A stretch of DNA of 64,000 nucleotides from Candidatus Microgenomatus sp. (GTDB lineage: Bacteria > Patescibacteriota > Minisyncoccia > UBA6257 > GWB1-50-10), in assembly GCA_020724805.1 (NCBI GenBank), contig DYGI01000001.1:389152-453151 (forward strand), in the 5' to 3' direction. The notes beneath the pieces were generated by a model. That model had not been told where the DNA came from, ran no database searches, and saw only the letters and a list, made by a program, of their open reading frames with translations. The first letter of the stretch is position 1. Each line of letters opens with the position of its first letter. A program made the translations under genes and the position numbers. Positions 3,763 through 52,005 of the stretch are shown here, piece by piece.

Positions 3763-4071
3763 CTAAAGCGCGAGTATGAGGAGCACCGCGAGCGTGATAA
3801 TGAGGAGGAAGCTCACCGTATAAACCGCAAGCGTCACCGCATCGGAACGTTTCCCTTCCATGTACCACGCGACCGGGCGGCCAAAGACCGCAAGTGCGAG
3901 AATCGCGGCCGAAGAAGAGAAGAGGAGCAAGAAGCCCATAGGCGCCACGATATCTCCCGCTTTGCCGGCGAACTGTTCCGCGCCGCTCATAATAGCGGCG
4001 ACAAGCGCCACATAACAGGATGCGATGGCGGCATTCCCGAGCGCGTAGAGCGCTATCTTGTTTTTATTCAT
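3763..4071 (-). CDS. small membrane protein (hypothetical)
   Basis: Three hydrophobic helices. Start at the internal Met (MNKNK); a TATGATATAAT-like -10 lies upstream on the minus strand. Confidence 0.45.
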   Translation of the reverse strand: MNKNKIALYALGNAAIASCYVALVAAIMSGAEQFAGKAGDIVAPMGFLLLFSSSAAILALAVFGRPVAWYMEGKRSDAVTLAVYTVSFLLIITLAVLLILAL

Positions 4072-4104
4072 ATGAAAAATTATATCATACAGGCACTTCA
4101 CCTC

Positions 4105-4246
4105 GCCCTTAATTATAGGCTGAAGGTACTGAGGTTTTACTTCGTCGTTCCTCCTCAGTACCTTCTTCGCTATTTATCCATCAGTGCCATAGGCCCTGAT
4201 GAACGAAGTGAAGAAGGGCTGCGGGGGCTGAACGATGTTCGAACCT
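4105..4246 (+). repeat. island-boundary element copy 1 (13-bp hairpin plus tRNA-Gln 3'-end-like core at 4216-4245)
   Basis: About 100 nt of homology, with indels, to 53260-53400 in inverse orientation. Reverse complement of the core reads GGTTCGAACATCGTTCAGCCCCCGCAGCCC, resembling a tRNA-Gln T-loop and acceptor 3' end. Confidence 0.7.
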
Positions 4247-4252
4247 ACTTTA

Positions 4253-4912
4253 TCACGTCGTTATGGTTCCGAACAGTGATTCTGAAGTCGCGATTTGAGC
4301 GAGAATGCTAGTGTGCAGTTTTTTCACAGCGCTCACTATACGATGATCGCCAACGTATTGTTTAACTTGAGCTCTCACTTTATGGATCAAATCGTTCGCG
4401 ATTCCGAAACGACTCCACATATTCAATTCATCGTCTAGCGTGAGAGTTTCCGGGTTTTTATAAAGATTTGCAATGCACTCATAGTATTCGCGCATAACCG
4501 CTTTAGGTTCACCGTTTGGGGTTTCAATATAGGTGAGTGAATCACGTGCTATTTGCATATCGAAGTTTCTTACGTCCTCGATATCTTGCAGTATCTTTAC
4601 CGCAGTTCTTTTTATCCACATTTCTTCTCCCTGGTCACGCATTCCTTCATCTATACCTGGTATTGTCTCACTGATAGCGCTCGCTTGAACATCATCGTAG
4701 AGAAGATGTGAAAACCATCCCTTGCGAAAATCGCTGGTTCTGAATGAAAGATCTGTTTGGTATCCCTTTGGGTGTGTGGCGAGTCTGTTAATTTTTGTCA
4801 CATATCGGCTATCTGGGTATATTGAGCCGGAAATGTACGCGTCAGCATCTTTGACGGAGAGTAGATCCTTAACATCAAGAGCAAACCTTATATGTGATCC
4901 TTGGAGCGCCAT
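4253..4912 (-). CDS. hypothetical protein (219 aa), island cargo
   Basis: Long ORF in AT-rich DNA; bracketed within 8-9 nt at each end by the direct repeats at 4216-4245 and 4921-4948. No recognisable motif. Confidence 0.5.
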   Translation of the reverse strand: MALQGSHIRFALDVKDLLSVKDADAYISGSIYPDSRYVTKINRLATHPKGYQTDLSFRTSDFRKGWFSHLLYDDVQASAISETIPGIDEGMRDQGEEMWIKRTAVKILQDIEDVRNFDMQIARDSLTYIETPNGEPKAVMREYYECIANLYKNPETLTLDDELNMWSRFGIANDLIHKVRAQVKQYVGDHRIVSAVKKLHTSILAQIATSESLFGTITT

Positions 4913-4920
4913 AAACTTTT

Positions 4921-4948
4921 TGCTGCGGGGCTTAAACGACGTTAGAAC
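4921..4948 (+). repeat. island-boundary element copy 2 (partial, core only)
   Basis: tgctgcggggcttaaacgacgttagaac, about 75% identical to 4216-4245. Its reverse complement ends CCCCGCAGCA, like the tRNA-Gln(CTG) 3' end. Confidence 0.6.
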
Positions 4949-5021
4949 TTATTTCCTTTCGACAAGTACCATTCATTAATAAAAATGGGTTCTACCCAAT
5001 TAGGGACATTGATTCTAATTA

Positions 5022-5528
5022 CTAAAAGACATAAATAACCTTTCCTATAATATCGTCTACCTGTTTAACGCCCAATATCGAATTCTCGTTATCACCTTTT
5101 TGGAACACCTCTCCATCGTTGAGATCAAAGCGTAAGATGGTGTCTGGTTTTATAATGTCCAACTCCGAAGCTGAAGAGTTTGGGAAAAGCGTTTTTTCTC
5201 CATTAACTGTGATAGTTTTATTTTCATCTATCACCACTTGATCGCCGGCGACACCGATAATCCTATGTATCCAGGGATCATAAACTGTTTCCTTCGTTAG
5301 CTTGTTTATAAGTGGCGTACCAAACATTACTATGTCGTTTCGTCTGACATTTGATAATAAGTAATGGATTCTACTTACCATCACGTAGCTTCCCTTATCA
5401 ATGGTTGGTTCCATTGAATCTCCTGCTACGTAGTGTATTGGGAAAAAAATTCTCACAAATAATCCAAGAAGAAAGAGAACCCCAATTACGTAGAAGGTGA
5501 ATCTTTTCCAAGGCTTTTTGGTCTGCAT
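5022..5528 (-). CDS. lepB: signal peptidase I (S26 family)
   Basis: N-terminal TM, catalytic Ser motif GDSMEPT, RIIGVAGD box. Confidence 0.8.
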   Translation of the reverse strand: MQTKKPWKRFTFYVIGVLFLLGLFVRIFFPIHYVAGDSMEPTIDKGSYVMVSRIHYLLSNVRRNDIVMFGTPLINKLTKETVYDPWIHRIIGVAGDQVVIDENKTITVNGEKTLFPNSSASELDIIKPDTILRFDLNDGEVFQKGDNENSILGVKQVDDIIGKVIYVF

Positions 5529-5549
5529 TGCTAGTTCTGCTTTATTTGA

Positions 5550-5819
5550 TTATAGGAAAAAATACGAAACGAAAGCCGAAAAGCTTGCCAGTAAATAACC
5601 AACTCCAGCAATGAAATTGATTGCCCGATTATCTTGGTTGAGAGTATCGAGGTATGCGTTAAAATCATTGATAAATTCTTCAATACCAAGTGGCACACCA
5701 TTAAAGGTTTTTACCCCTCCTTTATTTGAAAAGGGAGCGATTTTTTGAAAACTTCTCCAGAAATGATAAATCGCCAAAGCAAGAAATGAAAATGTAAATA
5801 TTATCCAAATGTACTTCAT
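5550..5819 (-). CDS. small membrane protein (hypothetical)
   Basis: Internal start MKYIWIIF; two TM helices. Confidence 0.4.
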   Translation of the reverse strand: MKYIWIIFTFSFLALAIYHFWRSFQKIAPFSNKGGVKTFNGVPLGIEEFINDFNAYLDTLNQDNRAINFIAGVGYLLASFSAFVSYFFL

Positions 5820-5972
5820 GGCTGGGAGGCTTGGGAGCGAACAACGCTCGTATTCACTCGCGTTCACAAAACCCTCGGTTTTGTGTCCACTATCGTTCAA
5901 TCCGACACGGAAGGGACACAAAAGGTTTCCCTTCCGACCCATCCCTCACTTAAATCGTCAGATTTAAGTCCA

Positions 5973-6002
5973 GATTCATGGCTTCAAAGGCCGCTGTCCT
6001 AT
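5973..6002. repeat. tRNA-Gln fragment (anticodon-arm region) duplicate
   Basis: agattcatggcttcaaaggccgctgtcctat matches tRNA positions 6068-6100 with one mismatch. Confidence 0.7.
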
Positions 6003-6046
6003 AGACAAGGGAGTGAGGAAATGGAAAGCGTCACTCCTGCGCACCG

Positions 6047-6117
6047 CTGGGAGGCTTGGGATCGAACCAAGATTCACGGCTTCAAAGGCCGCTGTCCTAC
6101 CATTAGACGACCTCCCA
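6047..6117 (-). tRNA. tRNA-Gln (anticodon TTG)
   Basis: Cloverleaf: acceptor TGGGAGG/CCTCCCA, D-arm GTCT/GGAC, anticodon loop CTTTGAA, T-arm CTTGG-TTCGATC-CCAAG, discriminator G. U1-A72 is typical of bacterial tRNA-Gln. Confidence 0.85.
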
Positions 6118-11012: not shown

Positions 11013-11771
11013 ATGGCGACAGTCCGTTATGAGCTCAAAACCGCACGTTACCAGGGACCCATCGAGGCGCTGGTGACGCTGATTGAGGAGAAACAACTTC
11101 CCATTCTCGAGGTTAGCTTGGCGGAGGTGACCGCCGATTTTCTTTCATATGTGGAGGGACTCGAGGCGCGGATACAGGAAGAGGGGGATGAAATGCTTGC
11201 GGAACTTCTCGCGGATTTTCTCCTTGTGGCATCACGGCTTATTCTCATCAAATCGAAGGCGCTCATGCCTTCGCTTGTTCTTACCGGCGAGGAGGAAGAG
11301 GATATCAAAGATTTGGAAGCGCGGGTGCGTCTTTACCGCGAACTTAAAGGTATACAGCCGCTTTTGAAAGGCGCATGGAGCGACATGCCGCAGACGCTCA
11401 CCCGGGAATTTTTACTTTCCGAAGAAGTGGTATTTTATCCGCCGGCAAAACTCGTATTCGGTGACCTTGCCGCCGCGGTGGCGCGCCTTGCCGGAGAGCT
11501 CGAACGCATTGCGCGCCCCATCGAAAAAGTGCGAGGAACCATCATCCATCTCAAAGAAAAGATTGAGGAAATATTCGAGCGGGTAAAAGGAGGAACATTC
11601 TCATTCGGTGAACTTTCCAAGAGTCGGTCGCGCGGCGAAGCGGTGGTATTGTTCCTTGCCATGCTTCATCTCATCAAATCCCAGCTAGTCCGCGTCACCC
11701 AATCGTCGCACTTTTCCGACATCAATATTGCGAAGCGGGAAAAGGAAGACGATAATGAAACCAATGGATAA
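11013..11771 (+). CDS. scpA: segregation and condensation protein A
   Basis: Kleisin N-terminal pattern, followed by the overlapping scpB. Confidence 0.8.
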   Translation: MATVRYELKTARYQGPIEALVTLIEEKQLPILEVSLAEVTADFLSYVEGLEARIQEEGDEMLAELLADFLLVASRLILIKSKALMPSLVLTGEEEEDIKDLEARVRLYRELKGIQPLLKGAWSDMPQTLTREFLLSEEVVFYPPAKLVFGDLAAAVARLAGELERIARPIEKVRGTIIHLKEKIEEIFERVKGGTFSFGELSKSRSRGEAVVLFLAMLHLIKSQLVRVTQSSHFSDINIAKREKEDDNETNG

Positions 11772-12333
11772 TCGGGAAGCCGCCTGTGAAGCGATACTTT
11801 TTTACTATGGCGCACCGCTCGCAATTCCCAAGCTTGCGAAGCTCCTTGGATGTACGCCGAAAGAATGCCGGGAAACGCTCGATGCGCTTTCCGCGCGATA
11901 TGTTGCCGATGCGGCGCGAGGACTTTTTCTCCTGATACACAATGAAGAAGCCACGATAGGAACAAAACCGGAGCTGAAAAGTTTTCTCGAATCCCTCATG
12001 AAGGAAGAGTTTCAGGAATCGCTCACTCCCGCCGCGCTCGAAGCGCTTTCACTGGTGAGCTACCTTGGTCCGGTCACGCGCGCAACCATCGACTACATTC
12101 GGGGCGTGAACTCCACGTTCACACTCCGAAACCTCCTTCTCCGAGGTCTTATCGATCGCGCGCCGGCGGAAAAGGGTGGGGGATACGAATATCGTGCCAG
12201 CGTGGAATTTTTGAAGCATATGGGAATTGCGCGAGTGGAAGAACTTCCCGAATACGAGAAATATCGCACGTTTTACCGTGACTTCGAGCTCGCAGGCGCT
12301 CCGAGCAAAACGCCGGCTGCACCCCAAATATGA
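11755..12333 (+). CDS. scpB: segregation and condensation protein B
   Basis: Tandem winged-helix pattern (EAILF..., ...LSLVSYLGPVTRATIDYIRG). Confidence 0.8.
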   Translation: MKPMDNREAACEAILFYYGAPLAIPKLAKLLGCTPKECRETLDALSARYVADAARGLFLLIHNEEATIGTKPELKSFLESLMKEEFQESLTPAALEALSLVSYLGPVTRATIDYIRGVNSTFTLRNLLLRGLIDRAPAEKGGGYEYRASVEFLKHMGIARVEELPEYEKYRTFYRDFELAGAPSKTPAAPQI

Positions 12334-13277
12334 CCGCACGCGTATCGGCACTACTACTTGCGGCGCTCATTATGGTTTCTGCGGCGCTCACGCGAACCGG
12401 CGGAGAGGGAGCGTTACCGGTGGAACGCGCTCCCGAGGCAAGCGCGGAAGCGCAAACTCCTCCTTTGTACTATTCGTTTCAGGCGAATGCGTTTTCCGCG
12501 GGCACAGGAGCCGGACGCGGACCGTCCCGCGACTGGAATGTACTCGACCCTCGCGTGGATGCGGCGGCAGCGCTTGTGTATTCGCTGGACGATGAAGTGA
12601 TACTCCTCGGTGCGCGCACGTATGCGCGTTGGCCCATGGCATCACTCACCAAACTTCTCACCTCGGTAGTGGTCGCGGAAAATATCGGGTACCACAAACG
12701 CGTGCCCATGACGGAGACCGCGATAGCGACGGAAGGAAACGGCGTGATGTTCAATCCCAACGAAGAATTTGCCGCACGCGATCTCGCGCGGATAATGATA
12801 ATGGCCTCGTCGAACGACGCCGCGGTCGCTTTCGAAGAGCATGTGGGAGGAAGGGAAGAGTTTTTGAAATTGCTCCGTGGCGCGGCGACAAAACTCGGCA
12901 TGGACCAGACCACACTTTCGGATGCCGCAGGTCTTTCCGCCGCCAATGAATCGTCCGCGAGCGACCTTATGAAGCTTGTGAAATATCTTGCCTCTTCGCG
13001 TCCGGAGATACTCGAATGGACGCGCCACGCGACATTCATCTTTCAACCCACCAATGACCCCACGAGCCGCACCGTGGCGAACATCGTACCGTTCGCCGAC
13101 GACCCCCGGTTCCTTGGCGGAAAAACGGGTACGCTCCCCGAAGCGCGGGAGAATTTTGCGGGACTATTTTCACTCGGCGGACGTCGGGTGGTGGTGGTTA
13201 TTCTCGGAAGTCGCGACCGGGTGCGCGAGGTGAATGAACTTCTTGATTGGACCATGCGTGCATACCACTTCAATTGA
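12330..13277 (+). CDS. D-alanyl-D-alanine carboxypeptidase (S11, PBP5-like)
   Basis: Signal peptide; SxxK (ASLTK), SxN (SSND), KTG (KTGT) motifs. Confidence 0.8.
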   Translation: MTARVSALLLAALIMVSAALTRTGGEGALPVERAPEASAEAQTPPLYYSFQANAFSAGTGAGRGPSRDWNVLDPRVDAAAALVYSLDDEVILLGARTYARWPMASLTKLLTSVVVAENIGYHKRVPMTETAIATEGNGVMFNPNEEFAARDLARIMIMASSNDAAVAFEEHVGGREEFLKLLRGAATKLGMDQTTLSDAAGLSAANESSASDLMKLVKYLASSRPEILEWTRHATFIFQPTNDPTSRTVANIVPFADDPRFLGGKTGTLPEARENFAGLFSLGGRRVVVVILGSRDRVREVNELLDWTMRAYHFN

Positions 13278-13283
13278 GGATAT

Positions 13284-13410
13284 GGATCCCGTTAGAAGCA
13301 AAAAACAACATTTCACCGTACTATGATAACTTTCTATATTTATTCTGTAGGTCGAGCAAGGCCGCATGCTACGGGTGTGCGCGTGGGCACACCCTGCTTC
13401 TAACGGGATG
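13284..13410 (+). promoter_or_regulatory. inverted-repeat leader element A (15-bp arms ATCCCGTTAGAAGCA / TGCTTCTAACGGGAT) enclosing the mraY start codon
   Basis: Fills the entire dacA-mraY intergenic region. The right arm contains the ATG at 13408. Homologous to 17074-17195, with a compensatory arm substitution between the two copies. Confidence 0.6.
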
Positions 13411-14454
13411 GAAATTTTCGAAGCGATTCGCATTCTCATACTCTTCGCGTTCGCATTCGTGGTGGCGCTTCTTCTCACGCCTTTTGTGCTTCATCGTCTT
13501 GTGGCATGGAATGTGCGCAAACGGAACATCCGAGACGCTACCTCCGCGCCCGTTTTCCACAGTTTGCATAAGGATAAGGGGAACACGCCGACCATGGGCG
13601 GCATCATCATTTGGGCTACCGTGCTTGGGCTTGCGGCGCTCTTTTTTCTCGCGAATCAGTTTTTTAACGGGTTCGCATCATATTTCGATTTTGTGAATCG
13701 CGCGGAAACCTATCTTCCGCTTGCCGCACTCGCGTTCGCGGCGGTGGTAGGTTTGGTGGACGACCTTTTCGGAATTCTCGGCAAAGGGCCGCACGGAGGC
13801 GGACTCACCGTGCCCCAGAAGCTCGTGCTCTACACCGCCGTGTCCGCCATCGGTGCGTGGTGGTTCTTCGTGCGCCTCGGGTGGGACACCATTTTTGTGC
13901 CGTTCGTTGGCCACGTGGTGGTCGGATGGTGGTATGTTCCCATTTTCATGTTCATCATCATCGCGTCGGCATTCTCCACGAACGAAACGGACGGTTTGGA
14001 CGGACTTGCAGCGGGAGTACTCTTTTTCGCATTCGGTGCGTTTGCGGTAGTTTCTTTCATTCTCCATCGCTACGACCTTGCGGCGATGAACGCGGTTATT
14101 TTGGGAGCGCTCCTCGCGTTTCTTTGGTTCAATATTTATCCCGCGAGGTTTTTTATGGGCGATACCGGGAGTATGGCGCTCGGGATAACCTTGGGGGTTA
14201 TGGCGATGCTCACCAACACGGTGTTCTTCCTCCCGTTTTTCGGTGCGATACTGGTTTTTGAATCGTTTTCGGTCATCATACAGCTCATTTCCAAGAAAAT
14301 TCGAGGGAAAAAGATATTTCTCTCGACTCCCATTCACCATCACTTCGAAGCGTTAGGATGGCCGGAAACGCAGGTCACCATGCGCTTTTGGTTCGTTTCA
14401 GCGGTGGCAACGATTCTTGGATTGGTGCTTTTTTTCCTCGCGCGATTCATTTGA
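13408..14454 (+). CDS. mraY: phospho-N-acetylmuramoyl-pentapeptide transferase
   Basis: 10 TM helices; NETDGLDGLA and FMGDTGS motifs. Confidence 0.9.
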   Translation: MEIFEAIRILILFAFAFVVALLLTPFVLHRLVAWNVRKRNIRDATSAPVFHSLHKDKGNTPTMGGIIIWATVLGLAALFFLANQFFNGFASYFDFVNRAETYLPLAALAFAAVVGLVDDLFGILGKGPHGGGLTVPQKLVLYTAVSAIGAWWFFVRLGWDTIFVPFVGHVVVGWWYVPIFMFIIIASAFSTNETDGLDGLAAGVLFFAFGAFAVVSFILHRYDLAAMNAVILGALLAFLWFNIYPARFFMGDTGSMALGITLGVMAMLTNTVFFLPFFGAILVFESFSVIIQLISKKIRGKKIFLSTPIHHHFEALGWPETQVTMRFWFVSAVATILGLVLFFLARFI

Positions 14455-14473
14455 TAGGTATAATAAAGGCGTC

Positions 14474-15946
14474 ATGACGACGCTCATTCAGGGCGGGATG
14501 GTGTACGACGGTACCGGCGGCACGCCGTATGAGGCGGACGTGTTGTTGCACGGAAAAACCATCACGCGCATCGGTCGACGCCTTTCGGTCAGGGCAAATC
14601 ACATCATCGAAGCGCGCGGCGGGCTCGTAACTCCGGGATTTGTGGATATCGCAAGTTACGCCGACCATTATCGAGCGCTCTTTGCCGATCCCGCAGGCAC
14701 CGAGTCATTGATTCGCGGTATCACCTCGCTTGTGGTGGGCCACGGCGGCGCTTCCATAGCGCCACTTTTTGCATGGAGCATTCTTCCGGAACGTTGGTGG
14801 GGGAATACCATCTCTCCCGCCGCCCACGCGGCCATGGTAAGCGAAGTATTTTCGTTGCTCCAAGGAAGAATAGGAGTGAATGTGGGAACACTCGTAGGGC
14901 ACGCGACGGTGCGCGAGGGAATTACCCACGGAACGCCGCGCGATCTCACCGAGCGTGAACTCGAACTTCTTTCCTACACTCTTCGCCATGCGCTTAAGGA
15001 AGGCGCACTCGGCATCTCCGTGAACTTGGAATATCCACGTACCACGCAAGTGCCGCGAAAAGAATTGATGCGCGTGGCGCATATTGCCGAGGAATTTCAT
15101 GCGGTTCTCTCGCTTCGACTTCGTTCGCGCACCGATCATGTGAAAGAGTCCCTCGCGGAAGTGCTTGCGCTTTCGGATGCGACGGAGGTAAATCTTCTTC
15201 TCACCGACGTTGAGCCTCACTCGACCGAAGAGGCGGCATACCGTGCGCTCATGAACCAAGTTACTCGCGCGTCAGCGGATCACCATGTGCACTTTACCAC
15301 CTCGGGAAGCGGTGTTGCCGCGTTCCCTCTTCCACTGCTTCTCCCGTCACATTGGCACGAGAAGGAATGGGATACCATGCGGGCGCGCCTCACCGACCGC
15401 GCGATGCGTGAGGAACTTCGTTCGCATCTTGTACGCTATCGCGACATTCCGATGTATGTGGCCGCCGTGGCGGACCCTTCGCTTAAACTTTTTGAAGGCA
15501 CGCCTTTCGCAAAGTGGTCTCTCCATGAGCACGTGCCTTTCGAAGAAGCGCTCATGCGACTCATGGAAGTTACCGGATTTCGGGCGGTGCTTGCGATGAA
15601 CGTGGGAGAGCCGGAGCTTGCTCGTGTCTTCGCGGCTCACGATCGCGCATTGATCGCTTCCGGTGAAGCGGCGGCGCCGGCTCTCGAATCTTCCGCGCAT
15701 TTAAAACTGCTCGCATTCAAAGATGGAGGTACATTCCCGCTCGAGCAACGCATCGCGAAAATGACGGGTGCGCCTGCAAAAAAGTTGGGCCTCTCCCGCC
15801 GCGGCATCCTTAAAGAAGGGTACTATGCCGACGTGCTCGTCATTGAAAAAGGAACGGTTCGCGAGACATTCGTGAATGGCGTTCGGGCCATTGCCGCCGG
15901 CGCGCCGACCGGCGAGCGGAGCGGGACGATACTTACGCGCGCATGA
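14474..15946 (+). CDS. amidohydrolase-superfamily protein, D-aminoacylase-like, with degenerate metal-binding motif
   Basis: N-terminal GGxVxDGTG...VxPGFVD block, but the HxH is replaced by ASYADH. C-terminal ...GYYADVLVIE...FVNG... is typical of N-acyl-D-amino-acid deacylases. Occupies the murD position. Confidence 0.6.
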   Translation: MTTLIQGGMVYDGTGGTPYEADVLLHGKTITRIGRRLSVRANHIIEARGGLVTPGFVDIASYADHYRALFADPAGTESLIRGITSLVVGHGGASIAPLFAWSILPERWWGNTISPAAHAAMVSEVFSLLQGRIGVNVGTLVGHATVREGITHGTPRDLTERELELLSYTLRHALKEGALGISVNLEYPRTTQVPRKELMRVAHIAEEFHAVLSLRLRSRTDHVKESLAEVLALSDATEVNLLLTDVEPHSTEEAAYRALMNQVTRASADHHVHFTTSGSGVAAFPLPLLLPSHWHEKEWDTMRARLTDRAMREELRSHLVRYRDIPMYVAAVADPSLKLFEGTPFAKWSLHEHVPFEEALMRLMEVTGFRAVLAMNVGEPELARVFAAHDRALIASGEAAAPALESSAHLKLLAFKDGGTFPLEQRIAKMTGAPAKKLGLSRRGILKEGYYADVLVIEKGTVRETFVNGVRAIAAGAPTGERSGTILTRA

Positions 15947-17073
15947 CGTCCGGAGGACTTTTTCGTACGCGTCCTCGCGGACTTCCAGATTTTGCGTTCG
16001 TCGGCGCGGTCGCCGCGCTCGTTATTTTCGGTCTCGTGATGCTCGCATCCGCCTCTTCCGACCTTGCACAAAAGCAGTATGGCGAAAGCTATTATCTTCT
16101 TCTCCACCAAATCACGAACGGCCTTTCGGTTGGCATCGTGGGTTTTCTTGCGGGCGCTTTCATTTACTATCGGACATGGGATAAGTTCTCTGTTTATATT
16201 CTCGCGGCGGGACTTATCGCGCTCCTTTTGATTTTCACGCCACTCGGAATTGCGCAGAAAGGAGGGGAGCGATGGGTGAATCTCGGTGCGTTCTCGTTCC
16301 AACCAGGTGAATTGGCGAAGCTCGCGCTCATCATTTATCTCGCGAGCTGGCTTGCGCGCACGCCGCTTCGCGCGAAGAATTTCATGGAAGGATTCATGCC
16401 ATTCCTTGTGCTCGTCGGCGCGGTCGTGGGGCTACTCCTCGCGCAACCCGCCACATCCACCGCCATCATTATCGTGGTGGGCGCGCTTACGTTGTATTTT
16501 ATGGGCGGCGCACGTATCCGATTTTTTGCACTCGCTGCGCTTCTTGTGGTCGTCGGATTCTCGCTTCTTTTCGCAGTGGGAGGGAAAGATGATTACCGCG
16601 TGCGGCGCATTATGACGTTTTTTAATCAAGAGGCAACCGACCCGCTGGATGAGGGATATCATATCGATCAGACGAAGTTCGCCATCGGCGCGGGAGGACT
16701 TACAGGTGTTGGCTTCGGCCAGTCCGTGACAAAACTTTATTCGCTTCCGGAGCGCATCGGCGATTCCATTTTTGCCATCATCGGCGAAGAATTCGGTTTC
16801 GTAGGATCCGTCGCGCTCATCGCGCTATTCGCGGTGTACGTGATTCGTGGATTCGCCATCGCGAAGCGGGCGCCGGATTCGTTTGGGCGTCTTACGACCA
16901 TCGGTTTCGTCACCATCATCGGATTCCAGGCGTTCGTGAACATCGCCGCTATCTCGGGACTCGTTCCGCTCACCGGCGTGCCGCTTCCGTTCATTTCGTA
17001 CGGCGGCACCGCCCTCGCGGTTTTTTTGACGATGTCGGGTATCGTCGTTAACATTTCAAGACATTCCCGATGA
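15943..17073 (+). CDS. ftsW: SEDS-family peptidoglycan glycosyltransferase FtsW/RodA
   Basis: 10 TM helices, conserved PGELAK and GGTA motifs, dcw context. Confidence 0.85.
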   Translation: MTSGGLFRTRPRGLPDFAFVGAVAALVIFGLVMLASASSDLAQKQYGESYYLLLHQITNGLSVGIVGFLAGAFIYYRTWDKFSVYILAAGLIALLLIFTPLGIAQKGGERWVNLGAFSFQPGELAKLALIIYLASWLARTPLRAKNFMEGFMPFLVLVGAVVGLLLAQPATSTAIIIVVGALTLYFMGGARIRFFALAALLVVVGFSLLFAVGGKDDYRVRRIMTFFNQEATDPLDEGYHIDQTKFAIGAGGLTGVGFGQSVTKLYSLPERIGDSIFAIIGEEFGFVGSVALIALFAVYVIRGFAIAKRAPDSFGRLTTIGFVTIIGFQAFVNIAAISGLVPLTGVPLPFISYGGTALAVFLTMSGIVVNISRHSR

Positions 17074-17195
17074 ATCCCGTTAGAGGCAACTAAATTACTA
17101 TCCAATGATTTACCGTATCAACAACGCACTATCAAATCAAAAGGTCTCGCGGCACAACTACGGTTGCCTTGTGGCGACCTGCCTCTAACGGGATG
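17074..17195 (+). promoter_or_regulatory. inverted-repeat leader element B (arms ATCCCGTTAGAGGCA / TGCCTCTAACGGGAT) enclosing the murG start codon
   Basis: Fills the ftsW-murG intergenic region. Right arm contains the ATG at 17193. Shares internal motifs with element A (ttYaccgta, ctat, ggtc, ctacgg). Confidence 0.6.
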
Positions 17196-18317
17196 AACAC
17201 CTTTCGCATCGCACTTACGGGAGGAGGTACCGGCGGACATGTATTTCCGCTCGCCGCGGTTGCCGATGAATTGCTGCGCATGGGGCAGGGGACCGTGGAA
17301 CTTCGCTACTACGGGCCTACGAGCGTATGGAATGAGATGCTCGCGGCGCGCGACATTCGCACTTCGCATATCGCGGGCGCAAAGCTCCGCCGCTATGCGT
17401 CGTTGCAAAATATTATCGACATCCCAAAGTTTTTTATCGGCCTACTCGAGGCGTTCGTAAAGCTCTATTTCTGGATGCCGGACGCGGTGTTTTCAAAAGG
17501 AGGTCCGGGCGCGTTGCCGGTTGTGTGCGCGGCCGCATGGTATCGAATTCCCATCGTGGTCCATGAATCGGATGCAGTGCCGGGACTCACGAACCGCATC
17601 TCGGCAAAATTCGCGAAAAAGATTTGTATAGCGTGGCGAAACGCTGCGGCATATTTCCCTGCGCGGAAAGTGATGGTCACCGGAAACCCGATACGTGCCG
17701 CGCTTGCGACTACCATGTTGGAGCGGCGTGCGGCAAAATCGCAACTCGGCGCGGACCCGGATACGCCTCTCCTCCTTGCGCTTGGAGGTTCGCAGGGCGC
17801 AAAAATATTGAACGACTTTGTGGACGCGGCGCTCCCGATGCTTCTTGCGCTCTGCCAGGTGTATCACCAGACCGGGAAGGGGAACGTGCCTTCCGTGAGC
17901 GACCATATGGGCGCTCGTCCCGCCGCACCTTCGCGGTATACCGCGCGGGATTTTATGGATGAACGGGAGCTTGCCACTGCGCTTCGTGCCGCCGACCTCG
18001 TGCTCACGCGGGCAGGTGCAGGCGCGATCTATGAATGTGCGGCTGCGGGCGTTCCCGCCATTCTTGTACCGCTCGCAAATGGCGCGAACGATCACCAAAG
18101 AGCGAATGCGGCCGAGTATGTCGCTTCGGGCGCCGCATTGGTCATTGAAGAAAACAATCTTACTCCGAACCTCGTGGCGGGAGAAATAAAAAAACTTCTC
18201 GCGGGCGGCGAGAAGTTGAAAATGATGGGGGAGAGGGCGCGCGCATTTTTTAAACCAAGCGCCGCAGAGGAAATCGCACGCGCAATCGTTACGGCGACCG
18301 GTGCTCAAATCAAATAA
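17193..18317 (+). CDS. murG: undecaprenyldiphospho-muramoylpentapeptide beta-N-acetylglucosaminyltransferase
   Basis: N-terminal GGGTGGHVFP motif, GT28 family architecture. Confidence 0.9.
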   Translation: MNTFRIALTGGGTGGHVFPLAAVADELLRMGQGTVELRYYGPTSVWNEMLAARDIRTSHIAGAKLRRYASLQNIIDIPKFFIGLLEAFVKLYFWMPDAVFSKGGPGALPVVCAAAWYRIPIVVHESDAVPGLTNRISAKFAKKICIAWRNAAAYFPARKVMVTGNPIRAALATTMLERRAAKSQLGADPDTPLLLALGGSQGAKILNDFVDAALPMLLALCQVYHQTGKGNVPSVSDHMGARPAAPSRYTARDFMDERELATALRAADLVLTRAGAGAIYECAAAGVPAILVPLANGANDHQRANAAEYVASGAALVIEENNLTPNLVAGEIKKLLAGGEKLKMMGERARAFFKPSAAEEIARAIVTATGAQIK

Positions 18318-18378: not shown

Positions 18379-19821
18379 ATGGACAAGGTACGTGTACGAT
18401 TTGCGCCGTCTCCCACGGGCCCTTTTAGCTTAGGAAATGCCCGTACGGCGCTCTATAACTGGCTTTTTGCCCGCCACGAAGGCGGGGAATTCTTCTTGCG
18501 TGTCGAGGACACCGACAAGGAGCGATCTAAAAAGGAGTACGAGGACGACATTCTTGAAGGTCTGAAATGGCTCGGTCTCACCTGGGATAACGCCGAGGTC
18601 ATGCGCCAGAGCGAGCGCGGGAAGATATACGAAGAAGCGCTCACCAAGCTTTTGAATGAAGGGCGCGCGTATTACTGCTTTTGCACACCGGATGAACTCG
18701 AAGCGGAGCGGCAGGCGCAGATGAGCCAGGGAATTCCTCCGAAGTACGGCGGGAAATGTCGCCACTTCACCAAAGAAGAGGCATCCGCGCAATTAGGGAA
18801 GAAATCCGCGGTCATTCGGTTTGCAATGCCGCCGCGCGAATTGGAATTCGAAGATATGATACGAGGCAAGGTGCGCGTGGATACGTCGCTTATCGGAGAT
18901 ATTGTCATTGCGCGGAACCTCCGTGACCCCCTTTATAACTTTTCCGTGGTGGTGGACGACGCCGCAATGGCAATCACGCACGTTATTCGCGGCGAGGACC
19001 ACCTCTCGAACACGCCGAAGCAGATTATGATAGCGGAAGCGCTCGGATTCACTTCGCCGCAGTTTGCACATCTCCCTCTCATCCTTGGTCCCGACAAGAA
19101 AAAACTTTCAAAGCGCAACCTTGAAGGTTCGCTGAACGACTACCGGAAGCAGGGTTATCTTCCCGAAGCGGTGTTGAATTTTTTGGTCCTTCTCGGATGG
19201 CACCCCGTAAAAGACCGCGAGATCCTTTCACGCGACGAGATGGTCGCCGAATTCAATTTGAAGCGCGTGCAGAAAGGCGGCGCGGTGATGAACGAGGAAA
19301 AACTTTCATGGCTCAATCTTCAACATCTGCGCGCGCTCCCGGTGGAAACCGTAATGGAACATCTCTCGCCATTCATTCCCGCGGAATGGAGAAAACGGCC
19401 CGCGTTTCTCCGCCGCGTAGTGGAAGTCGAACGAAATCGGATGAAAACGCTCCAGGAATTCGTCGAACTTGCGGACCCGTTTTTTGAGCTTCCCGAATAT
19501 CCCGCAACGCTTCTTATCTGGAAGGAAACGCCGAAAGAAATTGTGATAAAAAACCTTGAGGACGCCGAAGGCATCATTGCGGCGGCGCCCGAGAAAAAGC
19601 TCGTGGCCGCGGAGCTTGAGTCGCAGCTCTTTGAGATGGCAAATCGCACCGGGCGCGGCGAATTTTTGTGGCCGCTCCGCGTTGCGCTTTCCGGGCGCGA
19701 AGCATCGCCCGGGCCACTCGAACTCATCGAGGTTTTGGGAAAAGAAGAGGCGCTCCGTCGGATACACCACGCGCTCGAACTTCTCACTGGAGGCACCTTG
19801 GCGCCGGAAGTACGTTCGTAA
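18379..19821 (+). CDS. gltX: glutamyl-tRNA synthetase
   Basis: HIGH-type motif PSPTGPFSLGNARTA, KMSKS variant KLSKR, class I catalytic core. Confidence 0.9.
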   Translation: MDKVRVRFAPSPTGPFSLGNARTALYNWLFARHEGGEFFLRVEDTDKERSKKEYEDDILEGLKWLGLTWDNAEVMRQSERGKIYEEALTKLLNEGRAYYCFCTPDELEAERQAQMSQGIPPKYGGKCRHFTKEEASAQLGKKSAVIRFAMPPRELEFEDMIRGKVRVDTSLIGDIVIARNLRDPLYNFSVVVDDAAMAITHVIRGEDHLSNTPKQIMIAEALGFTSPQFAHLPLILGPDKKKLSKRNLEGSLNDYRKQGYLPEAVLNFLVLLGWHPVKDREILSRDEMVAEFNLKRVQKGGAVMNEEKLSWLNLQHLRALPVETVMEHLSPFIPAEWRKRPAFLRRVVEVERNRMKTLQEFVELADPFFELPEYPATLLIWKETPKEIVIKNLEDAEGIIAAAPEKKLVAAELESQLFEMANRTGRGEFLWPLRVALSGREASPGPLELIEVLGKEEALRRIHHALELLTGGTLAPEVRS

Positions 19822-19830
19822 TATATAACC

Positions 19831-21141
19831 ATGCCGCGCATTTTCACATCTTTGGTCGTTATCGCTTTGGTGGCAACCGGAGCGCCACTCGTGGTGGCGC
19901 AAGAAACGCCGATTTCCGGCAGTGCTTCGGTTACCGCGGAAAACAACGAGCTCAAGACAAAGATAAACGAGAAAGCCACCATTCTTGAGGCGATTGAGGC
20001 CCAAAAAGCGGCAATACAGCAGAACCTCGAAGAGGTGGAAGGGTCCGCACGCACGCTTTCACAGGAAGTAAAATCCATTGATACGAACATTCGCCAACTT
20101 GACCTCACCATCCAATCAAATGAGGTGCTTATCGAGAAGCTTGGGCTCGAGCTTGAATTCCTCGGGGACGAAATTCCTCGCATCGAGGACTCAATAAAAA
20201 ATGCGAAACTTACCATTAAAAAACTTTTTGTGGAACTTCAGGAACGCGAGCGGGAGAATTTACTCGTGATGTTCCTTCGCAATCAGAGCCTTTCGGAAAG
20301 CGTCGGCGAACTTCAAACACTCACCGCGCTCAACAATCGCCTCACTATCCAAATAGAGGAGTTCCGTACACTACAGGAAGCGCTCGCAAATCGCATCAAT
20401 GAAACGTCCCGCACAAAGTCGCGTGCGCAGGTGGAAATCACAAATCTCGCAAGCCGCCAAGTGATCGCGGCGGAAGTGAAATCGGAGAAAGAACGGCTTC
20501 TTGAAGCCACGAGAAGCCAGGAGGAGCTCTACTTGCGCCAACTCGAACAATTGAAAGCGCTTCAGGCCGAAATTTCCAAAGAAATCGATGCAATCGAAAC
20601 CGAGCTTCGGCGCACCATCGACAAAAATCTTTTACCGCTCCCGCGCCCAGGCGTGCTTCTGTGGCCGGTGGGCGGCGGACGTCTTACTCAGGAATACGGG
20701 TACACCACGTTCGCGGCGCGCAATTACGGGAGTAAGTTCCATAACGGCGCGGACATTGGTGCGCCAATCGGGACCGAAGTGTACGCTTCGGAAAAGGGAA
20801 TCGTAATCAATGTGGGAAACCAGGACGCGTATCGCGGCTGCTATCGTGCGGGATATGGAAGGTTCATTGTGGTAAAACACGAGAACGGCCTAACCACCCT
20901 CTACGCGCACCTTTCGAGGCAGATAGTGAAGGTGGGCGATGAGGTGGAACGCGGAGAGGTCATCGGATATGTGGGGCGTACGGGATGGGCCACGGGACCT
21001 CACCTCCATTTCACGGTCTTCGCCACGCAGACCATCACGCCAGCGCGCGGAAACCTCCCGGAGGGCACGGTGCAATCACGTTCCTGCGGTCCGATGCCGG
21101 TCGGCGGTGATATGAATCCGTTGCAATATTTGGATGTTTGA
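19831..21141 (+). CDS. M23 peptidase with N-terminal coiled-coil (EnvC-like)
   Basis: Signal peptide and long coiled-coil. C-terminal HxxxD (GADIGAP) and HLHF motifs. Confidence 0.8.
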   Translation: MPRIFTSLVVIALVATGAPLVVAQETPISGSASVTAENNELKTKINEKATILEAIEAQKAAIQQNLEEVEGSARTLSQEVKSIDTNIRQLDLTIQSNEVLIEKLGLELEFLGDEIPRIEDSIKNAKLTIKKLFVELQERERENLLVMFLRNQSLSESVGELQTLTALNNRLTIQIEEFRTLQEALANRINETSRTKSRAQVEITNLASRQVIAAEVKSEKERLLEATRSQEELYLRQLEQLKALQAEISKEIDAIETELRRTIDKNLLPLPRPGVLLWPVGGGRLTQEYGYTTFAARNYGSKFHNGADIGAPIGTEVYASEKGIVINVGNQDAYRGCYRAGYGRFIVVKHENGLTTLYAHLSRQIVKVGDEVERGEVIGYVGRTGWATGPHLHFTVFATQTITPARGNLPEGTVQSRSCGPMPVGGDMNPLQYLDV

Positions 21142-22048
21142 AGAACGTTCATTGCTTCAATCAAAAGCGTGGGCGCGATTACAGGAACAAGTCGGCCGCC
21201 GAGTACGCCACATGCCCGATACTGGAATATTTCTCGTTGAAATGCCTCTCCGGCTCGGTTTGCGATATGAGTATGCGCCGCACGGACCGTCGGGAGGTGC
21301 GCTGAACGGTTCGATACTCCACGATATTGCCGAACATACCCATGGCGCGGATACGGTTTTTGTGCGTATTGAGCCGCGCGTAGCGGACACGCCCGAAGCG
21401 CGGGGAGTCCTCATGCACGCAGGGTTCAGGAAAGTTCCGGACGTCCAACCGAGCGAAACGCGGATTATCGATCTCACCAAAAGCGAGGATGAATTGCTTC
21501 GTGATATGGAACACGATACGCGTTATGCGATACGCACCGCGGAAAAGAGGGGAGTGAATATTGAAGTGATACGAGACGAGGGGAAAGGCCCGGCATTCGC
21601 GAAGTTTTGGGAATTATTCGAGCACACGAACATGCGCCACGGTCTCCATGCGTACGGGAAATCCTATTACCAAGCGGTGGCGAACTTGAGCGGCGAATGT
21701 TCTGCGGAAATATTTTTAGCGAACCGTGAGGGGGGAGCCATCGCGAGCGCTATTACCGCATATTTTGGAACACACGCATATTATCTCTACGCCGCATCAC
21801 GTCCCGGACAGGGAAAATACAATGCGCCATCTCTCCTTCTCTGGGAGATCATTCGCAGCGCGAAGGCTCGCGGATGTAAAACGTTGGACCTCTGGGGCAT
21901 TTCCGAGACCAAAAAAGAGTGGCACGGCGTGACCGCTTTTAAGAAAAGTTTCGGCGGCGCTTCGATCCGGTTTGTCGGCACATGGGATTATGTGTATAGG
22001 CCGCTATGGTATCTCGGTTATCGATTTGCACGACGTATGTTGCGATAG
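21134..22048 (+). CDS. FemAB-family aminoacyl-tRNA-dependent peptidoglycan peptidyltransferase-like protein
   Basis: C-terminal block ...HAYYLYAAS...NAPSLLLWEII...GCKTLDLWGI... is typical of FemAB (PF02388). Confidence 0.65.
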   Translation: MFEERSLLQSKAWARLQEQVGRRVRHMPDTGIFLVEMPLRLGLRYEYAPHGPSGGALNGSILHDIAEHTHGADTVFVRIEPRVADTPEARGVLMHAGFRKVPDVQPSETRIIDLTKSEDELLRDMEHDTRYAIRTAEKRGVNIEVIRDEGKGPAFAKFWELFEHTNMRHGLHAYGKSYYQAVANLSGECSAEIFLANREGGAIASAITAYFGTHAYYLYAASRPGQGKYNAPSLLLWEIIRSAKARGCKTLDLWGISETKKEWHGVTAFKKSFGGASIRFVGTWDYVYRPLWYLGYRFARRMLR

Positions 22049-32263: not shown

Positions 32264-33223
32264 ATGGCCGAAATGCACCGTTATGCAAGGTTTGTCCGAG
32301 CGCTTGTAACTACGGCATTCGTGCTTATACCCCTCGCAATTTTCGCGGGCATTTTTGTTTTTCAAAATGGGCAGCTCGCAAAAGAACGCGCACTCATAGA
32401 AGCCGAACGTCTTTCAAATGTCATCGCAGCGCAACAAATGCAACAATTCACGAATATTCGCAACCTCCTTATTAGTATCGCAAGCTACGCGGAAGTGGAG
32501 AATCGCGATGCGGAAGGTTGCAACCGCACGCTCGCTCTTCTTTTGGAACACGTTAATACTCCGACCTACACCTATCACAACCTTGGCATCGCGGATTCAA
32601 ACGGTCAGGTGTTCTGCAGCGCACTTCCCGCGGAACGTTCTGTAAACACGGCTGATCGGTATTATTTTCAGCGCGCGATGCAGACGCGCAGCTTTTCCAT
32701 CGGCGAGTATCAGATTGGGCGCATTACCGGAAAAGAATCGATAAATTTTGGCTACCCCGTACTTGATGAAAAGGGTGCGGCGACGTTTGTTATCTTTGCC
32801 GCAGAAAGTCTTGATGCTATTCACGAGCGCGCGAACCGCGTGCGCGGGGAGGGATATCCTATACTCATCATCACTGACCGAAACGGCACAATTTTGGTCC
32901 ACCCCGAATACCGGGAAGCGGTTGGAACACATTTCACCGAACATGAACGCATGCACAATGCTCCTTCCGGATCATTCTCGGCTATAGGTCCGGACGGCAC
33001 CGCCTATCTTTTTGGTTTCGCCACCCCCACCGTCGCCACTCAAGGCGACCACATCCATTTCATCATCGGAATCCCCCTTGTTCGTATTTCCGCATATCTC
33101 GATGATCAAATTGCCCGCTATGCTGAGTACTTTTTCGGGGCGATAGCGCTCTTCGGTGCGCTCGGTTGGTTTGTGAGTGATCGGTTGGTGCGGCGACTCC
33201 TCGCGCATAAAACTGTCAGTTAA
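32264..33223 (+). CDS. Cache-type extracytoplasmic sensor domain membrane protein without output domain
   Basis: N- and C-terminal TM helices flank a periplasmic domain of about 280 aa with a double PAS/Cache-like pattern. No kinase, MCP or GGDEF follows. Confidence 0.45.
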   Translation: MAEMHRYARFVRALVTTAFVLIPLAIFAGIFVFQNGQLAKERALIEAERLSNVIAAQQMQQFTNIRNLLISIASYAEVENRDAEGCNRTLALLLEHVNTPTYTYHNLGIADSNGQVFCSALPAERSVNTADRYYFQRAMQTRSFSIGEYQIGRITGKESINFGYPVLDEKGAATFVIFAAESLDAIHERANRVRGEGYPILIITDRNGTILVHPEYREAVGTHFTEHERMHNAPSGSFSAIGPDGTAYLFGFATPTVATQGDHIHFIIGIPLVRISAYLDDQIARYAEYFFGAIALFGALGWFVSDRLVRRLLAHKTVS

Positions 33224-34946
33224 GATCTTTTTTGATCTCTTCGAGCTCTTCTTCTACCGCAGTTTCGGCGGCATCCACGTCGTGTTTGAGATGAATGAGG
33301 ATTTTTTCTTCCTCTATCGTAAGTGCGCGTTTAGTTTTCGCACTTTCAAGAAGACGAAGGTGTTTCTTCATGGAAGCGCGTAATTTTTCGAATTCTTTTT
33401 TCACATCCCGTTCCGCGTCTTTAATGTCGCGCTGCACTTTTTTCTTGAATCCAAACATATTCCGCCACGCGAACCAGCAGATGCTCGCGAGGAACACGAG
33501 GAGTGCAATAATGGAAACAATAACCGTGAGAAGATTGATGGCGTAAGAGCCAATGCGGATGATGCTCGGACTTTCCACCGCGACGGTATAACGTGCACTC
33601 GGTGCGGTTTTGGCACCACGCGCATCCACCGCGTCTGCCCACAGTTCGTATACTCCCGCCGGAATTTCTCTATCGCCCGCGACAACGTAGTTCCCTTGCG
33701 CATCACTTGTGCCGTTGTAGAAGCGCGGCGTAATGCCCTCTCTCTCCAACCATACCGTCACGGTCGCATTCGGCACTGTGCGTCCGCGCACCGTAAGAAT
33801 ACCTCCAGGCTCGAGCGTTGAAGGATATGTGGTAATAACCGGCGCGGGGAGCTGTTGAATCACCACTTCCGAGAGCGCCGCTTGGTAATTCCCGGCACGA
33901 TCGAATGCTTGTACCAAAAGCGTTTGGGTCCCTCCTACAGTCGAAGGAAGTGTGTAGGGATTGTGCTCAACCTGTTCCGAAGAAACCACCACAAAATCCT
34001 GGTCGCCTATTTTTACCTTGTAGTATTCGATGCCAGATTCAGTGTCACGCGTATTGAACAGCACCACAGGGTTCGGGTTTGTGGAATCTTCTCCTTCTGC
34101 GAGCCTTATTTCGAATCGTTCAGGTGGTGTGGTATCCACTTGAAAACGGAAATGCGCCACTGCTCCCCAACCATTCGCGTTTCGGAATTGTGCGTGCAGG
34201 TAGTATGCACCATCGGAAACATCTTCTATTTTTTTCTCCGATATTGGTGGGTCATAGAGTACAGTTGGCGTCGTAAGTGGCGAAGTGTTGTAGAGAAGAC
34301 GTACTGCTGTCACGCCGCTCGGAACCTCCCACGTAAACTGTGGAGTCTTATTTGCATACCAGCGATCAGGATTGGGATGAGTCGGCGAAACGATACGGGG
34401 TGCGAGTGGCGCACCGGGCGGCGTGGGACTTGTGACATCTCCCGCGGTCGTACCGCCGATAGTGTATCCACCAGTGCCGAGCGAGGCGAGAATGTTCGTC
34501 CCCTGCCCATCGTTTGCGAGCACGCTCCCGCTCGTGAAACGAAGGTTTGCGACGCCATTTGCTTTTGTGCGGAACACAACGGTAATTACAGTACCATTCG
34601 CCCCGGCGTATCCGGGATTCAACACCACTCCTTCGAAGCTCACAGTCCCGGCTTCATTCGAAAACGACGGCTCCTGCACCCAGAGATTTACGATGGATCC
34701 AGTCTTCGATATAGACACAACCTCAAGGAGCGAGACGGGGAAAGATACCGTTCCGGACACCGCATTCATCGCCTGATCTGATGAATCAACCGCCACTCGC
34801 ACCGAAAACGTTTGACCCGCGGTGAACCCCCCGCTCCCCGGCACAAGCGTAAGCGTCGCCGCCTCCGCGGTTGGAAGTAGAATTATGGGCGAAACGAGCG
34901 CGAGCGCAATCCCTAATCCGCGCGCGAGCGATATTTTCTTTGCCAT
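33216..34946 (-). CDS. cohesin-like domain surface protein, C-terminal TM anchor and charged tail
   Basis: Signal peptide. The segment TLTLVPGSGG...VNAVSGTVSFPVSLLEVVSI...VFRTKANG... matches a cohesin beta-sandwich pattern. Ig-like repeats follow, then a TM and KK/EE-rich tail. Confidence 0.55.
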   Translation of the reverse strand: MAKKISLARGLGIALALVSPIILLPTAEAATLTLVPGSGGFTAGQTFSVRVAVDSSDQAMNAVSGTVSFPVSLLEVVSISKTGSIVNLWVQEPSFSNEAGTVSFEGVVLNPGYAGANGTVITVVFRTKANGVANLRFTSGSVLANDGQGTNILASLGTGGYTIGGTTAGDVTSPTPPGAPLAPRIVSPTHPNPDRWYANKTPQFTWEVPSGVTAVRLLYNTSPLTTPTVLYDPPISEKKIEDVSDGAYYLHAQFRNANGWGAVAHFRFQVDTTPPERFEIRLAEGEDSTNPNPVVLFNTRDTESGIEYYKVKIGDQDFVVVSSEQVEHNPYTLPSTVGGTQTLLVQAFDRAGNYQAALSEVVIQQLPAPVITTYPSTLEPGGILTVRGRTVPNATVTVWLEREGITPRFYNGTSDAQGNYVVAGDREIPAGVYELWADAVDARGAKTAPSARYTVAVESPSIIRIGSYAINLLTVIVSIIALLVFLASICWFAWRNMFGFKKKVQRDIKDAERDVKKEFEKLRASMKKHLRLLESAKTKRALTIEEEKILIHLKHDVDAAETAVEEELEEIKKDLN

Positions 34947-35827: not shown

Positions 35828-35829
35828 GA

Positions 35830-37717: not shown

Positions 37718-37750
37718 TTCCCTTATCGTACTCCTCCCCGTGCCGTTTTA

Positions 37751-49053: not shown

Positions 49054-49124
49054 TGCGGGATCGTCTAATGGTAGGACGTCTGGCTCTGAACCAGAAAATT
49101 GGGGTTCGATTCCCTGTCCCGCAG
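49054..49124 (+). tRNA. tRNA-Gln (anticodon CTG)
   Basis: Acceptor TGCGGGA/TCCCGCA, D-arm GTCT/GGAC, anticodon loop CTCTGAA, T-loop TTCGATT, discriminator G. Confidence 0.8.
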
Positions 49125-49261
49125 CATTAGGACTAAATAGTCCTAAAATACCCACCGGAGAGGTGGGGTTCGCGTTTTAGTACGACTCCGTGTACGTTTT
49201 TTCCCTTTTCGGCATTCCTACCCCCGTTATATTCTCCTCTCGGCACTCTTAGAGTCTGAAG

Positions 49262-51880: not shown

Positions 51881-52005
51881 TCTTCGTTCTTTCTATTAGA
51901 GAAGATTGTCGGTACAAAATATACAATAAAATTCCTTGCTTGGAAAGCGTTATGTATCGCCGCTATTTAGAACACCCCCTCGGTAGGGGGTGTTCTGTCT
52001 GGCGC

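Follow-up and report, generated by a model that had tools for sequence, protein, structure and literature searches.

Gene X lies in a division and cell wall (dcw) cluster of Candidatus Microgenomatus sp., within a 64,000-nucleotide stretch of genomic DNA (GenBank assembly GCA_020724805.1, contig DYGI01000001.1, positions 389,152 to 453,151 of the forward strand) that we refer to in full as the window. X is our shorthand for the gene between mraY and ftsW (14474..15946, + strand), which Pfam, phmmer, AlphaFold2 and Foldseek identify as D-aminoacylase-like. Pfam assignments of its neighbours, all on the + strand, gave two conserved upstream members of the cluster, scpA-scpB (11013..12333) and an S11 D-Ala-D-Ala carboxypeptidase gene (12330..13277), then mraY (13366..14454; Glycos_transf_4, 3e-30) and, beyond X, an ftsW/rodA-family gene (15943..17073), murG (17193..18317) and downstream gltX, M23 peptidase and FemAB-family genes (18379..22048). 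This agrees with the order mraY-X-ftsW-murG proposed by an earlier interpretation made from the letters without database searches (the sequence-only reading). In all related Patescibacteria loci, gltX (glutamyl-tRNA synthetase, 18379-19821) is a fixed member of the series ftsW-murG-gltX-M23; the FemAB-family (aminoacyl-tRNA-dependent) transferase gene after M23 (21134-22048) is found in the cluster only in the window's clade.

The reading frame of X runs from ATG at 14474 to TGA at 15946 and encodes 490 amino acids. It begins 19 nucleotides after the mraY stop, and a ribosome-binding-like AAAGG (14465..14469, +), read directly from the sequence, lies 4 nucleotides 5' of the ATG. We placed the start at 14474 because a longer frame, opening at TTG 14417, would run into mraY, and because all X homologues in our alignment begin with MTTLI. 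At its 3' end, the stop of X overlaps the start of ftsW by 4 nucleotides (ATGA), and the two genes are probably co-translated. Scanning the cluster for promoters gave signals that were not distinguishable from shuffled sequence, and a terminator scan gave none that was clear from mraY through X to ftsW. The layout of mraY, X and ftsW is operon-like.

X is a member of the D-aminoacylase family, as judged from homology and a predicted fold. Although Pfam returned just a weak C-terminal Amidohydro_3 match (35 bits) and NCBIfam no equivalog match, phmmer searches against PDB sequences matched 9KB3 (9e-31), 1M7J (2e-30), 9G5M (~1e-30) and 3GIP (5e-26), with D-aminoacylase homology spanning the whole length of X. 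An AlphaFold2 model built from 28 homologues (predicted local distance difference test score 89.9; predicted template-modelling score 0.91) superposed full-length on 1M7J, 3GIP and 9KB3 in Foldseek, with template-modelling (TM) scores of 0.79-0.81. The three-part fold is intact in the model: a beta-sandwich, a TIM barrel and an alpha/beta insertion, the lid domain. These results uphold the suggestion in the sequence-only reading of a two-domain protein of D-aminoacylase type that is not a Mur ligase; Pfam detected no Mur-ligase domain (Mur_ligase_M/C with an ATP-binding P-loop) in X. Canonical relatives of 550-570 amino acids carry N-terminal extensions in the alignment. X has no signal peptide, which marks it as a predicted cytoplasmic protein.

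The fold has been kept and the active site has not. We used the residue numbering of the D-aminoacylase structure 1M7J, in which a tight (beta) zinc is held by Cys96, His220 and His250 and a weak second (alpha) site is formed by His67, His69 and Asp366. Residue roles were drawn from PMC12149444, from how PDB entries 1V4Y and 1RJQ are titled and from what is established about the 1M7J structure, and the counterparts in X were read by alignment. Asp366 is the general base of D-acylases (PMC12149444; also the title of PDB 1RJQ), and YPY is their conserved ligand-binding motif (PMC12149444). In X, the former HxH of the alpha site (His67 and His69) has become Ala60 and Tyr62 (codons 60-62, A-S-Y, 14651..14659, +). 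All three ligands of the tight zinc are replaced: Cys96 by Gly91 (codon 91, 14744..14746, +), His220 by Arg215 (codon 215, 15116..15118, +) and His250 by Asp245, the last within a His250-x-Lys252 motif that now reads D-V-E, with Glu247 for the lysine (codons 245-247, 15206..15214, +). The general base on strand 8, Asp366, is Gly397 (codon 397, 15662..15664, +). The anchors of the substrate carboxylate have gone as well, because Lys252 is replaced, YPY (Tyr283) is Ser-Gly-Ser (codons 277-279, 15302..15310, +) and the loop with Arg377 (HPR), which follows the Asp366 position, is deleted.

This profile and structure-prediction check of the metal ligands bears out the claim that the metal site of X is destroyed (H67A, H69Y, C96G, H220R, H250D and D366G). 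It corrects the claim that only the second histidine of the HxH is kept, because both are gone. The histidine in PGFVDIASYADH (...SYADH) is His65. This conserved position is a different one, and relatives can have it alongside the true second histidine (for example, DVNAHADHY). On these residues, X would be unable to bind zinc or substrate in the ancestral way. With every functional residue lost, it appears to be a catalytically inactive descendant of a D-amino-acid deacylase, that is, a pseudoenzyme.

The replacements are shared across the window's clade, which comprises ten protein clusters. R215, E247, S277 and G397 occur in 10/10 clusters, and Y62, G91 and D245 in 9/10. Over nine pocket positions, the mean fraction of the major residue was 0.90, as against 0.74 for the whole protein (resampling, P ~0.015). 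Because the substitutions are fixed across the clade, they are not random decay; a new conserved residue set (Y62, H65, R215, D245, E247 and G397) seems to occupy the old pocket. The sequence-only reading had also suggested X as a possible non-catalytic binder of peptidoglycan precursors or stem peptides containing D-amino acids. We found no specific support for this role, and because Tyr283, Arg377 and Lys252 are lost in the clade too, any ligand binding would need a remodelled pocket or another surface.

X is nevertheless maintained. Between X and its homologue at locus L005 (L and P numbers denote the loci and protein clusters of this analysis), which are 62% identical, the proportion of nonsynonymous differences (pN) was 0.246 and that of synonymous differences (pS) 0.709. 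Because synonymous divergence is saturated (pS ~0.7), we relied on the comparison of pN with pS and on how fast X evolves compared with its neighbours. Within the cluster, X evolves faster than every other gene, yet just 1.3-1.5 times as fast as MurG, FemAB and ScpB. At least 10 protein clusters, at 52-70% identity, retain the full-length open reading frame (ORF) of 490 amino acids, and ORF length, synteny and the ftsW overlap persist down to ~30% identity. X is under purifying selection and, because its replacements are conserved within the clade, is best described as a pseudoenzyme under such selection.

Close homologues of X (52-70% identity) come from genomes labelled Brennerbacteria or Jorgensenbacteria. 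By search rank and a neighbour-joining tree, the closest relatives are cytoplasmic Patescibacteria proteins of 470-560 amino acids (P0002-P0034), which ranked before the canonical enzymes. So far, the X family is almost exclusively found in Patescibacteria: most of the locus records carry labels of Patescibacteria lineages, and in around 12 third-party assemblies labelled Bdellovibrionales or Saccharibacteria, the X sequences nest among those of Moranbacteria in a quick neighbour-joining tree. A profile of the 'live' members of the family matched 1M7J at 2e-101 and conserves Cys96, His220, His250, Lys252, Tyr283 and Arg377. With the six site residues H67, H69, C96, H220, H250 and D366 written in that order, most 'live' members read NHCHHN, with Asn both at His67 and at the general base, and a minority (Portnoybacteria-like; L009, L058 and L071) retain Asp at 366.

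Against this background, the metal site has been eroded repeatedly. The signature of the window's clade is AYGRDG, with --GKDG in L097, and other branches read DEDHH- (L007), NGDHHD (L008), HRCCHP (L017, L099 and L100), NHDSDS (L020) and NHNNDN (L021). In a Moranbacteria subclade that still adjoins murD, the signatures are NHSYHN and THSQHN. Members reading NHSYHN (L078, L080, L083, L084, L137, L138, L143, L144 and others) carry Ser in place of Cys96, paired with Tyr in place of His220, and lie directly upstream of murD. Comparison of the signatures suggests that the metal site was eroded independently at least five times, with the gene retained and the lost residues differing by branch. We considered whether decay is confined to loci without an adjacent murD and ruled this out, because the NHSYHN/THSQHN subclade lost Cys96 and His220 beside murD. 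Because the gene outlives repeated loss of the base and of metal ligands, even beside murD, the function of the family is probably not hydrolysis.

The sequence-only reading had placed X in the murD slot of the dcw cluster. We compared the slot across loci from GTDB species representatives (80), metagenomes (80, without the window's own contig) and exact-protein look-ups (16), which we classified by BLASTP against the proteins of the window's cluster and by a hidden Markov model (HMM) of MurD; the context calls depend on ORF prediction and thresholds. The slot occurs in three states. In the first, it holds murD without X, in the order scpA-scpB-S11-mraY-murD-ftsW-murG-gltX-M23 (L090, L092, L093 and L094), and these clusters bear out the placement of X in that slot. 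In the second, X lies between mraY and murD (L009, L058, L071, L134, L146, L153, L164, L169, L170, L173 and L175). In the third, X is present without murD (the window, L004-L008, L013-L018, L020-L022, L026, L098, L102, L107, L113, L168 and others); the window's cluster otherwise has the same gene order as the first two states, with ftsW rather than murD directly after X. The idea that X replaced murD does not hold, because relatives have both in the order mraY-X-murD-ftsW (L009, L058, L071, L134, L146, L153, L164 and L175). The ligase at L009, for example, scores 348 bits on TIGR01087 (cut-off 212).

The pairing of X with murD extends well beyond these clusters. murD was directly 3' of X in 53/80 GTDB-derived loci and in 43/56 of the metagenome loci that have 1.5 kb or more of downstream sequence; in total, X was immediately followed by murD in about 100 loci. 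The gap between them has a median of 64 nucleotides and is 30 nucleotides or less in 41/111 cases. In Moranbacteria, the X-murD pair is found outside the dcw cluster, after a GAPDH gene (gapdh-X-murD). The X family is co-inherited with murD and, because X directly precedes murD in so many loci, X in the window is read as the former upstream neighbour of a murD that has been removed from this cluster. Full-text searches of the published literature turned up no account of a gene resembling a deacylase within Patescibacteria dcw clusters, or of the X-murD pair.

Related loci show other lineage-specific features. One Portnoybacteria genome has a 295-amino-acid DUF483 protein between murD and ftsW (L092:6306-7193), another lineage-specific insertion in the same slot. 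In some Moranbacteria (L019:7338-9950, L028:11568-14084, L036, L052, L060 and L086), the ORF after X encodes 835-870 amino acids and is Mur-ligase-like in its C-terminal third alone. These ORFs score 240-264 bits with the MurD HMM, as against 520-580 bits for ordinary neighbours, and their N-terminal 400-500 amino acids have no Pfam match.

We then asked where murD might be. The MurD HMM, for which we used 60 MurDs of Patescibacteria, picks up MurC as well, at 65-89 bits (L008, L021 and L058). It had no match at E<=10 in any of the six reading frames of the window (64 kb), in accord with the statement in the sequence-only reading that the window has no murD. Pfam searches of the larger window ORFs found no Mur ligase of any kind and no glutamate racemase, no Mur ligase lay in the next 10 kb to the right of the window, and no X-only locus had murD within 10 kb. 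Among the best 120 matches listed for the MurD of L058, all at 48% identity or more and mostly of Portnoybacteria type, none came from the window's genome, and neither did any of the best 120 listed for the MurC of L008; both searches are uninformative on absence. The nearest MurD matches (P0203, P0211, P0124 and P0127) were considered as a relocated murD of an X-only lineage and were rejected, because all represent the murD-only state of the slot. Because the window encodes mraY, murG, ftsW, S11, M23 and FemAB genes, the organism makes peptidoglycan. To our knowledge, MurD is near-universal in bacteria that keep mraY, murG and ftsW, and we therefore favour relocation over loss: it is very probable that murD has moved elsewhere in the genome, and its outright loss would be surprising. 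A protein identical to X is encoded on a 570,864-bp JGI contig (Ga0246236_1000004). Both ends of this contig meet inside the window at ~36590-36613, with mappings that differ by 20 bp, so the source is a closed circular genome of ~571 kb.

We propose that X descends from D-Glu-type deacylases of N-acyl-D-amino acids and has kept their whole fold. The X family would be a cytoplasmic branch of these enzymes whose ancestral place was directly upstream of murD, in the order scpAB-S11-mraY-X-murD-ftsW-murG-gltX-M23. For the ancestral enzyme, the most plausible target is an N-acyl-D-Glu group, such as the one at the end of the MurD product. In the lineage of the window, murD would have been removed from the cluster, presumably by relocation, leaving X joined to ftsW. 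The role under selection would be non-catalytic, in binding, scaffolding or regulating the cytoplasmic enzymes of lipid II synthesis (MurD, MraY, MurG and FtsW). We assign a probability of roughly 0.55 to this account as a whole, in which X is a pseudoenzyme, the former neighbour of murD and a non-catalytic partner of the lipid II precursor machinery. Several points weigh against it. Buried barrel positions are often conserved anyway, so the fixed pocket may be merely structural. The proposed non-catalytic role draws solely on the pattern of residue loss. Moranbacteria, a single order-level group, supply most of the X-murD loci, so the counts overstate independence and reflect about three independent contexts. 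The relocation of murD is assumed from the near-universality of MurD rather than from a murD located in the genome, and murC, murE and murF likewise lie outside the window.

We regard each of two alternatives as unlikely. X could be a remodelled enzyme in which Y62, H65, R215, D245 and E247 form a metal-independent site acting on a peptidoglycan precursor. The above-average conservation of pocket positions in the clade and the intact fold, including the lid domain, would fit such an enzyme, and metal-independent members of the amidohydrolase superfamily, such as LigI, do exist. However, the Asp of beta-strand 8, almost universal in the superfamily, is Gly in X, the substrate-anchoring YPY and Arg377 are gone, and sister lineages have lost different subsets of residues, a pattern more like relaxation than like convergence toward a new site. 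Alternatively, and with a similarly low likelihood, the X family could bind an N-acyl-D-Glu-type ligand without hydrolysing it. The family is linked with murD, the MurD product has N-acyl-D-Glu at its end, and most 'live' members combine the Cys/His/His set, Tyr283 and Arg377 with Asn as the base, a combination that fits non-hydrolytic binding. In the window's clade, however, the replacement or deletion of Tyr283, Arg377 and Lys252 means that the ancestral binding mode could not have been retained.

The remaining two alternatives seem to us considerably more improbable. One is a non-homologous displacement, in which X-only genomes lack any murD, the addition of D-Glu is bypassed or performed by a route other than a Mur ligase (for example, uptake of a host-made precursor) and X is a component or remnant of that route. 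The three states of a single slot in closely related lineages point in this direction, as does the lack of a Mur ligase in the window, in the 10 kb past its right end and, for murD, within 10 kb of any X-only locus. Yet with murC, murE and murF absent from the window too, the absence of murD there says little, and genes for Mur ligases are scattered in these genomes: murD is outside the dcw cluster in Moranbacteria, and at L008 and L021 murC lies several kb away, downstream of gltX. X itself, lacking metal, base, nucleotide-binding motif and substrate anchors, is an implausible ligase for D-Glu. The other, about equally improbable, is that X is a functionless relic in slow decay that is still undisrupted, as might be suspected of the fastest-evolving gene of the cluster, in which all known functional residues are lost. 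Against this stand a pN far below pS, an intact ORF of equal length and conserved synteny down to ~30% identity, the fixation of the replacement residues, the preserved translational overlap with ftsW and the very small, streamlined genomes in which the gene is kept (571 kb here).

Elsewhere in the window, a release-factor-2-like protein of just 232 amino acids with PCRF and RF-1 domains and a GGQ motif is encoded at 61779-62477 (-). A tRNA-Thr gene lies directly upstream of this ORF and leaves no room for the usual N-terminal part of ~130 amino acids. An ORF of 1,645 amino acids at 38761-43698 (-) has no Pfam match, and the neighbouring ORFs at 33216-38701 have Ig-like or dockerin domains or nothing, suggesting a block of large surface proteins. 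Two regions, at 4001-6000 and 50001-52000, have a G+C content of 0.41-0.43, as against ~0.54 elsewhere, and their ORFs (4253-4912, 50711-51880 and 49594-50280) have no Pfam matches. A tRNA-Gln gene adjoins each region (6046-6117 and 49054-49125), and the regions may be acquired islands.

As far as we know, the catalogue of early, cytoplasmic steps in peptidoglycan synthesis is regarded as complete. The loci described here point to a lineage-wide extra gene between mraY and murD in Patescibacteria, one that travels with murD and has been kept while its catalysis appears to have been given up repeatedly. If X is a true partner of MurD or MraY, it would add a new component to the making of cell-wall precursors in a very large share of bacterial diversity that is uncultivated, and its family would provide a clean natural progression in which an enzyme becomes a pseudoenzyme. 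The family also offers a handle on how host-dependent bacteria obtain or handle D-glutamate. As a single pseudoenzyme, X is moderately interesting; the serial loss of catalysis beside murD across the family is the more valuable lead.

Among characterized proteins, X has the same three-part fold as the D-aminoacylase of Alcaligenes faecalis DA1 (1M7J, EC 3.5.1.81) and the Klebsiella D-acylase (9G5M), with a TM score of 0.80 and a match of 2e-30. Compared with these enzymes, the live Patescibacteria relatives keep Cys96, His220, His250, Lys252, Tyr283 and Arg377, whereas X has none of them, nor Asp366; X also lacks a signal peptide and is encoded within a cell-wall cluster. The best match in both sequence and fold is OngB, a carbohydrate de-N-acetylase (9KB1/9KB3), but OngB works in oxidative chitin catabolism as an active metalloenzyme and has no link to murD or dcw genes. 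Bb3285, the N-acyl-D-glutamate deacylase of Bordetella bronchiseptica (3GIP/3GIQ, EC 3.5.1.82), belongs to the same fold and family (TM score 0.79, 5e-26), although X is without its catalytic apparatus. Its substrate class, N-acyl-D-Glu, corresponds to the chemical end of the MurD product and fits the link of the X family with murD. Enzymes of this type also cleave L-Xaa-D-Glu dipeptides, which would allow salvage of D-Glu. Arg295 in the alpha/beta domain of Bb3285 confers specificity for D-Glu (PMC12149444), and this position is not reliably alignable to X.

For a non-catalytic role, there are precedents within and beyond the fold. CRMPs are amidohydrolase-fold proteins in which the metal site has disappeared and which serve in binding or scaffolding without catalysis. 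CRMP/dihydropyrimidinase-like proteins (4B90 and 5UQC) are weaker fold matches to X (TM ~0.55) and, being eukaryotic, cytoskeleton-binding members of another subfamily (the hydantoinase type), offer an analogy only. Degenerate peptidoglycan hydrolases that act as regulators, such as LytM-type factors, are a further precedent. In Xanthomonas, an extra gene beside a gene for a MurD-type ligase handles the D-Glu of the stem peptide (MurD2/MurL; PMC8788868), and MurL is an ATP-dependent epimerase with no known conserved domains (PMC8788868). X is unlikely to be a MurL (XOO_1319), because X has a clear amidohydrolase fold and MurL is described as lacking known domains, a distinction that we draw from the description. 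MurD2/MurL nonetheless provides a precedent for lineage-specific partners of MurD, from which X differs in its amidohydrolase fold and in the ordinary TIGR01087 MurD of the Patescibacteria.

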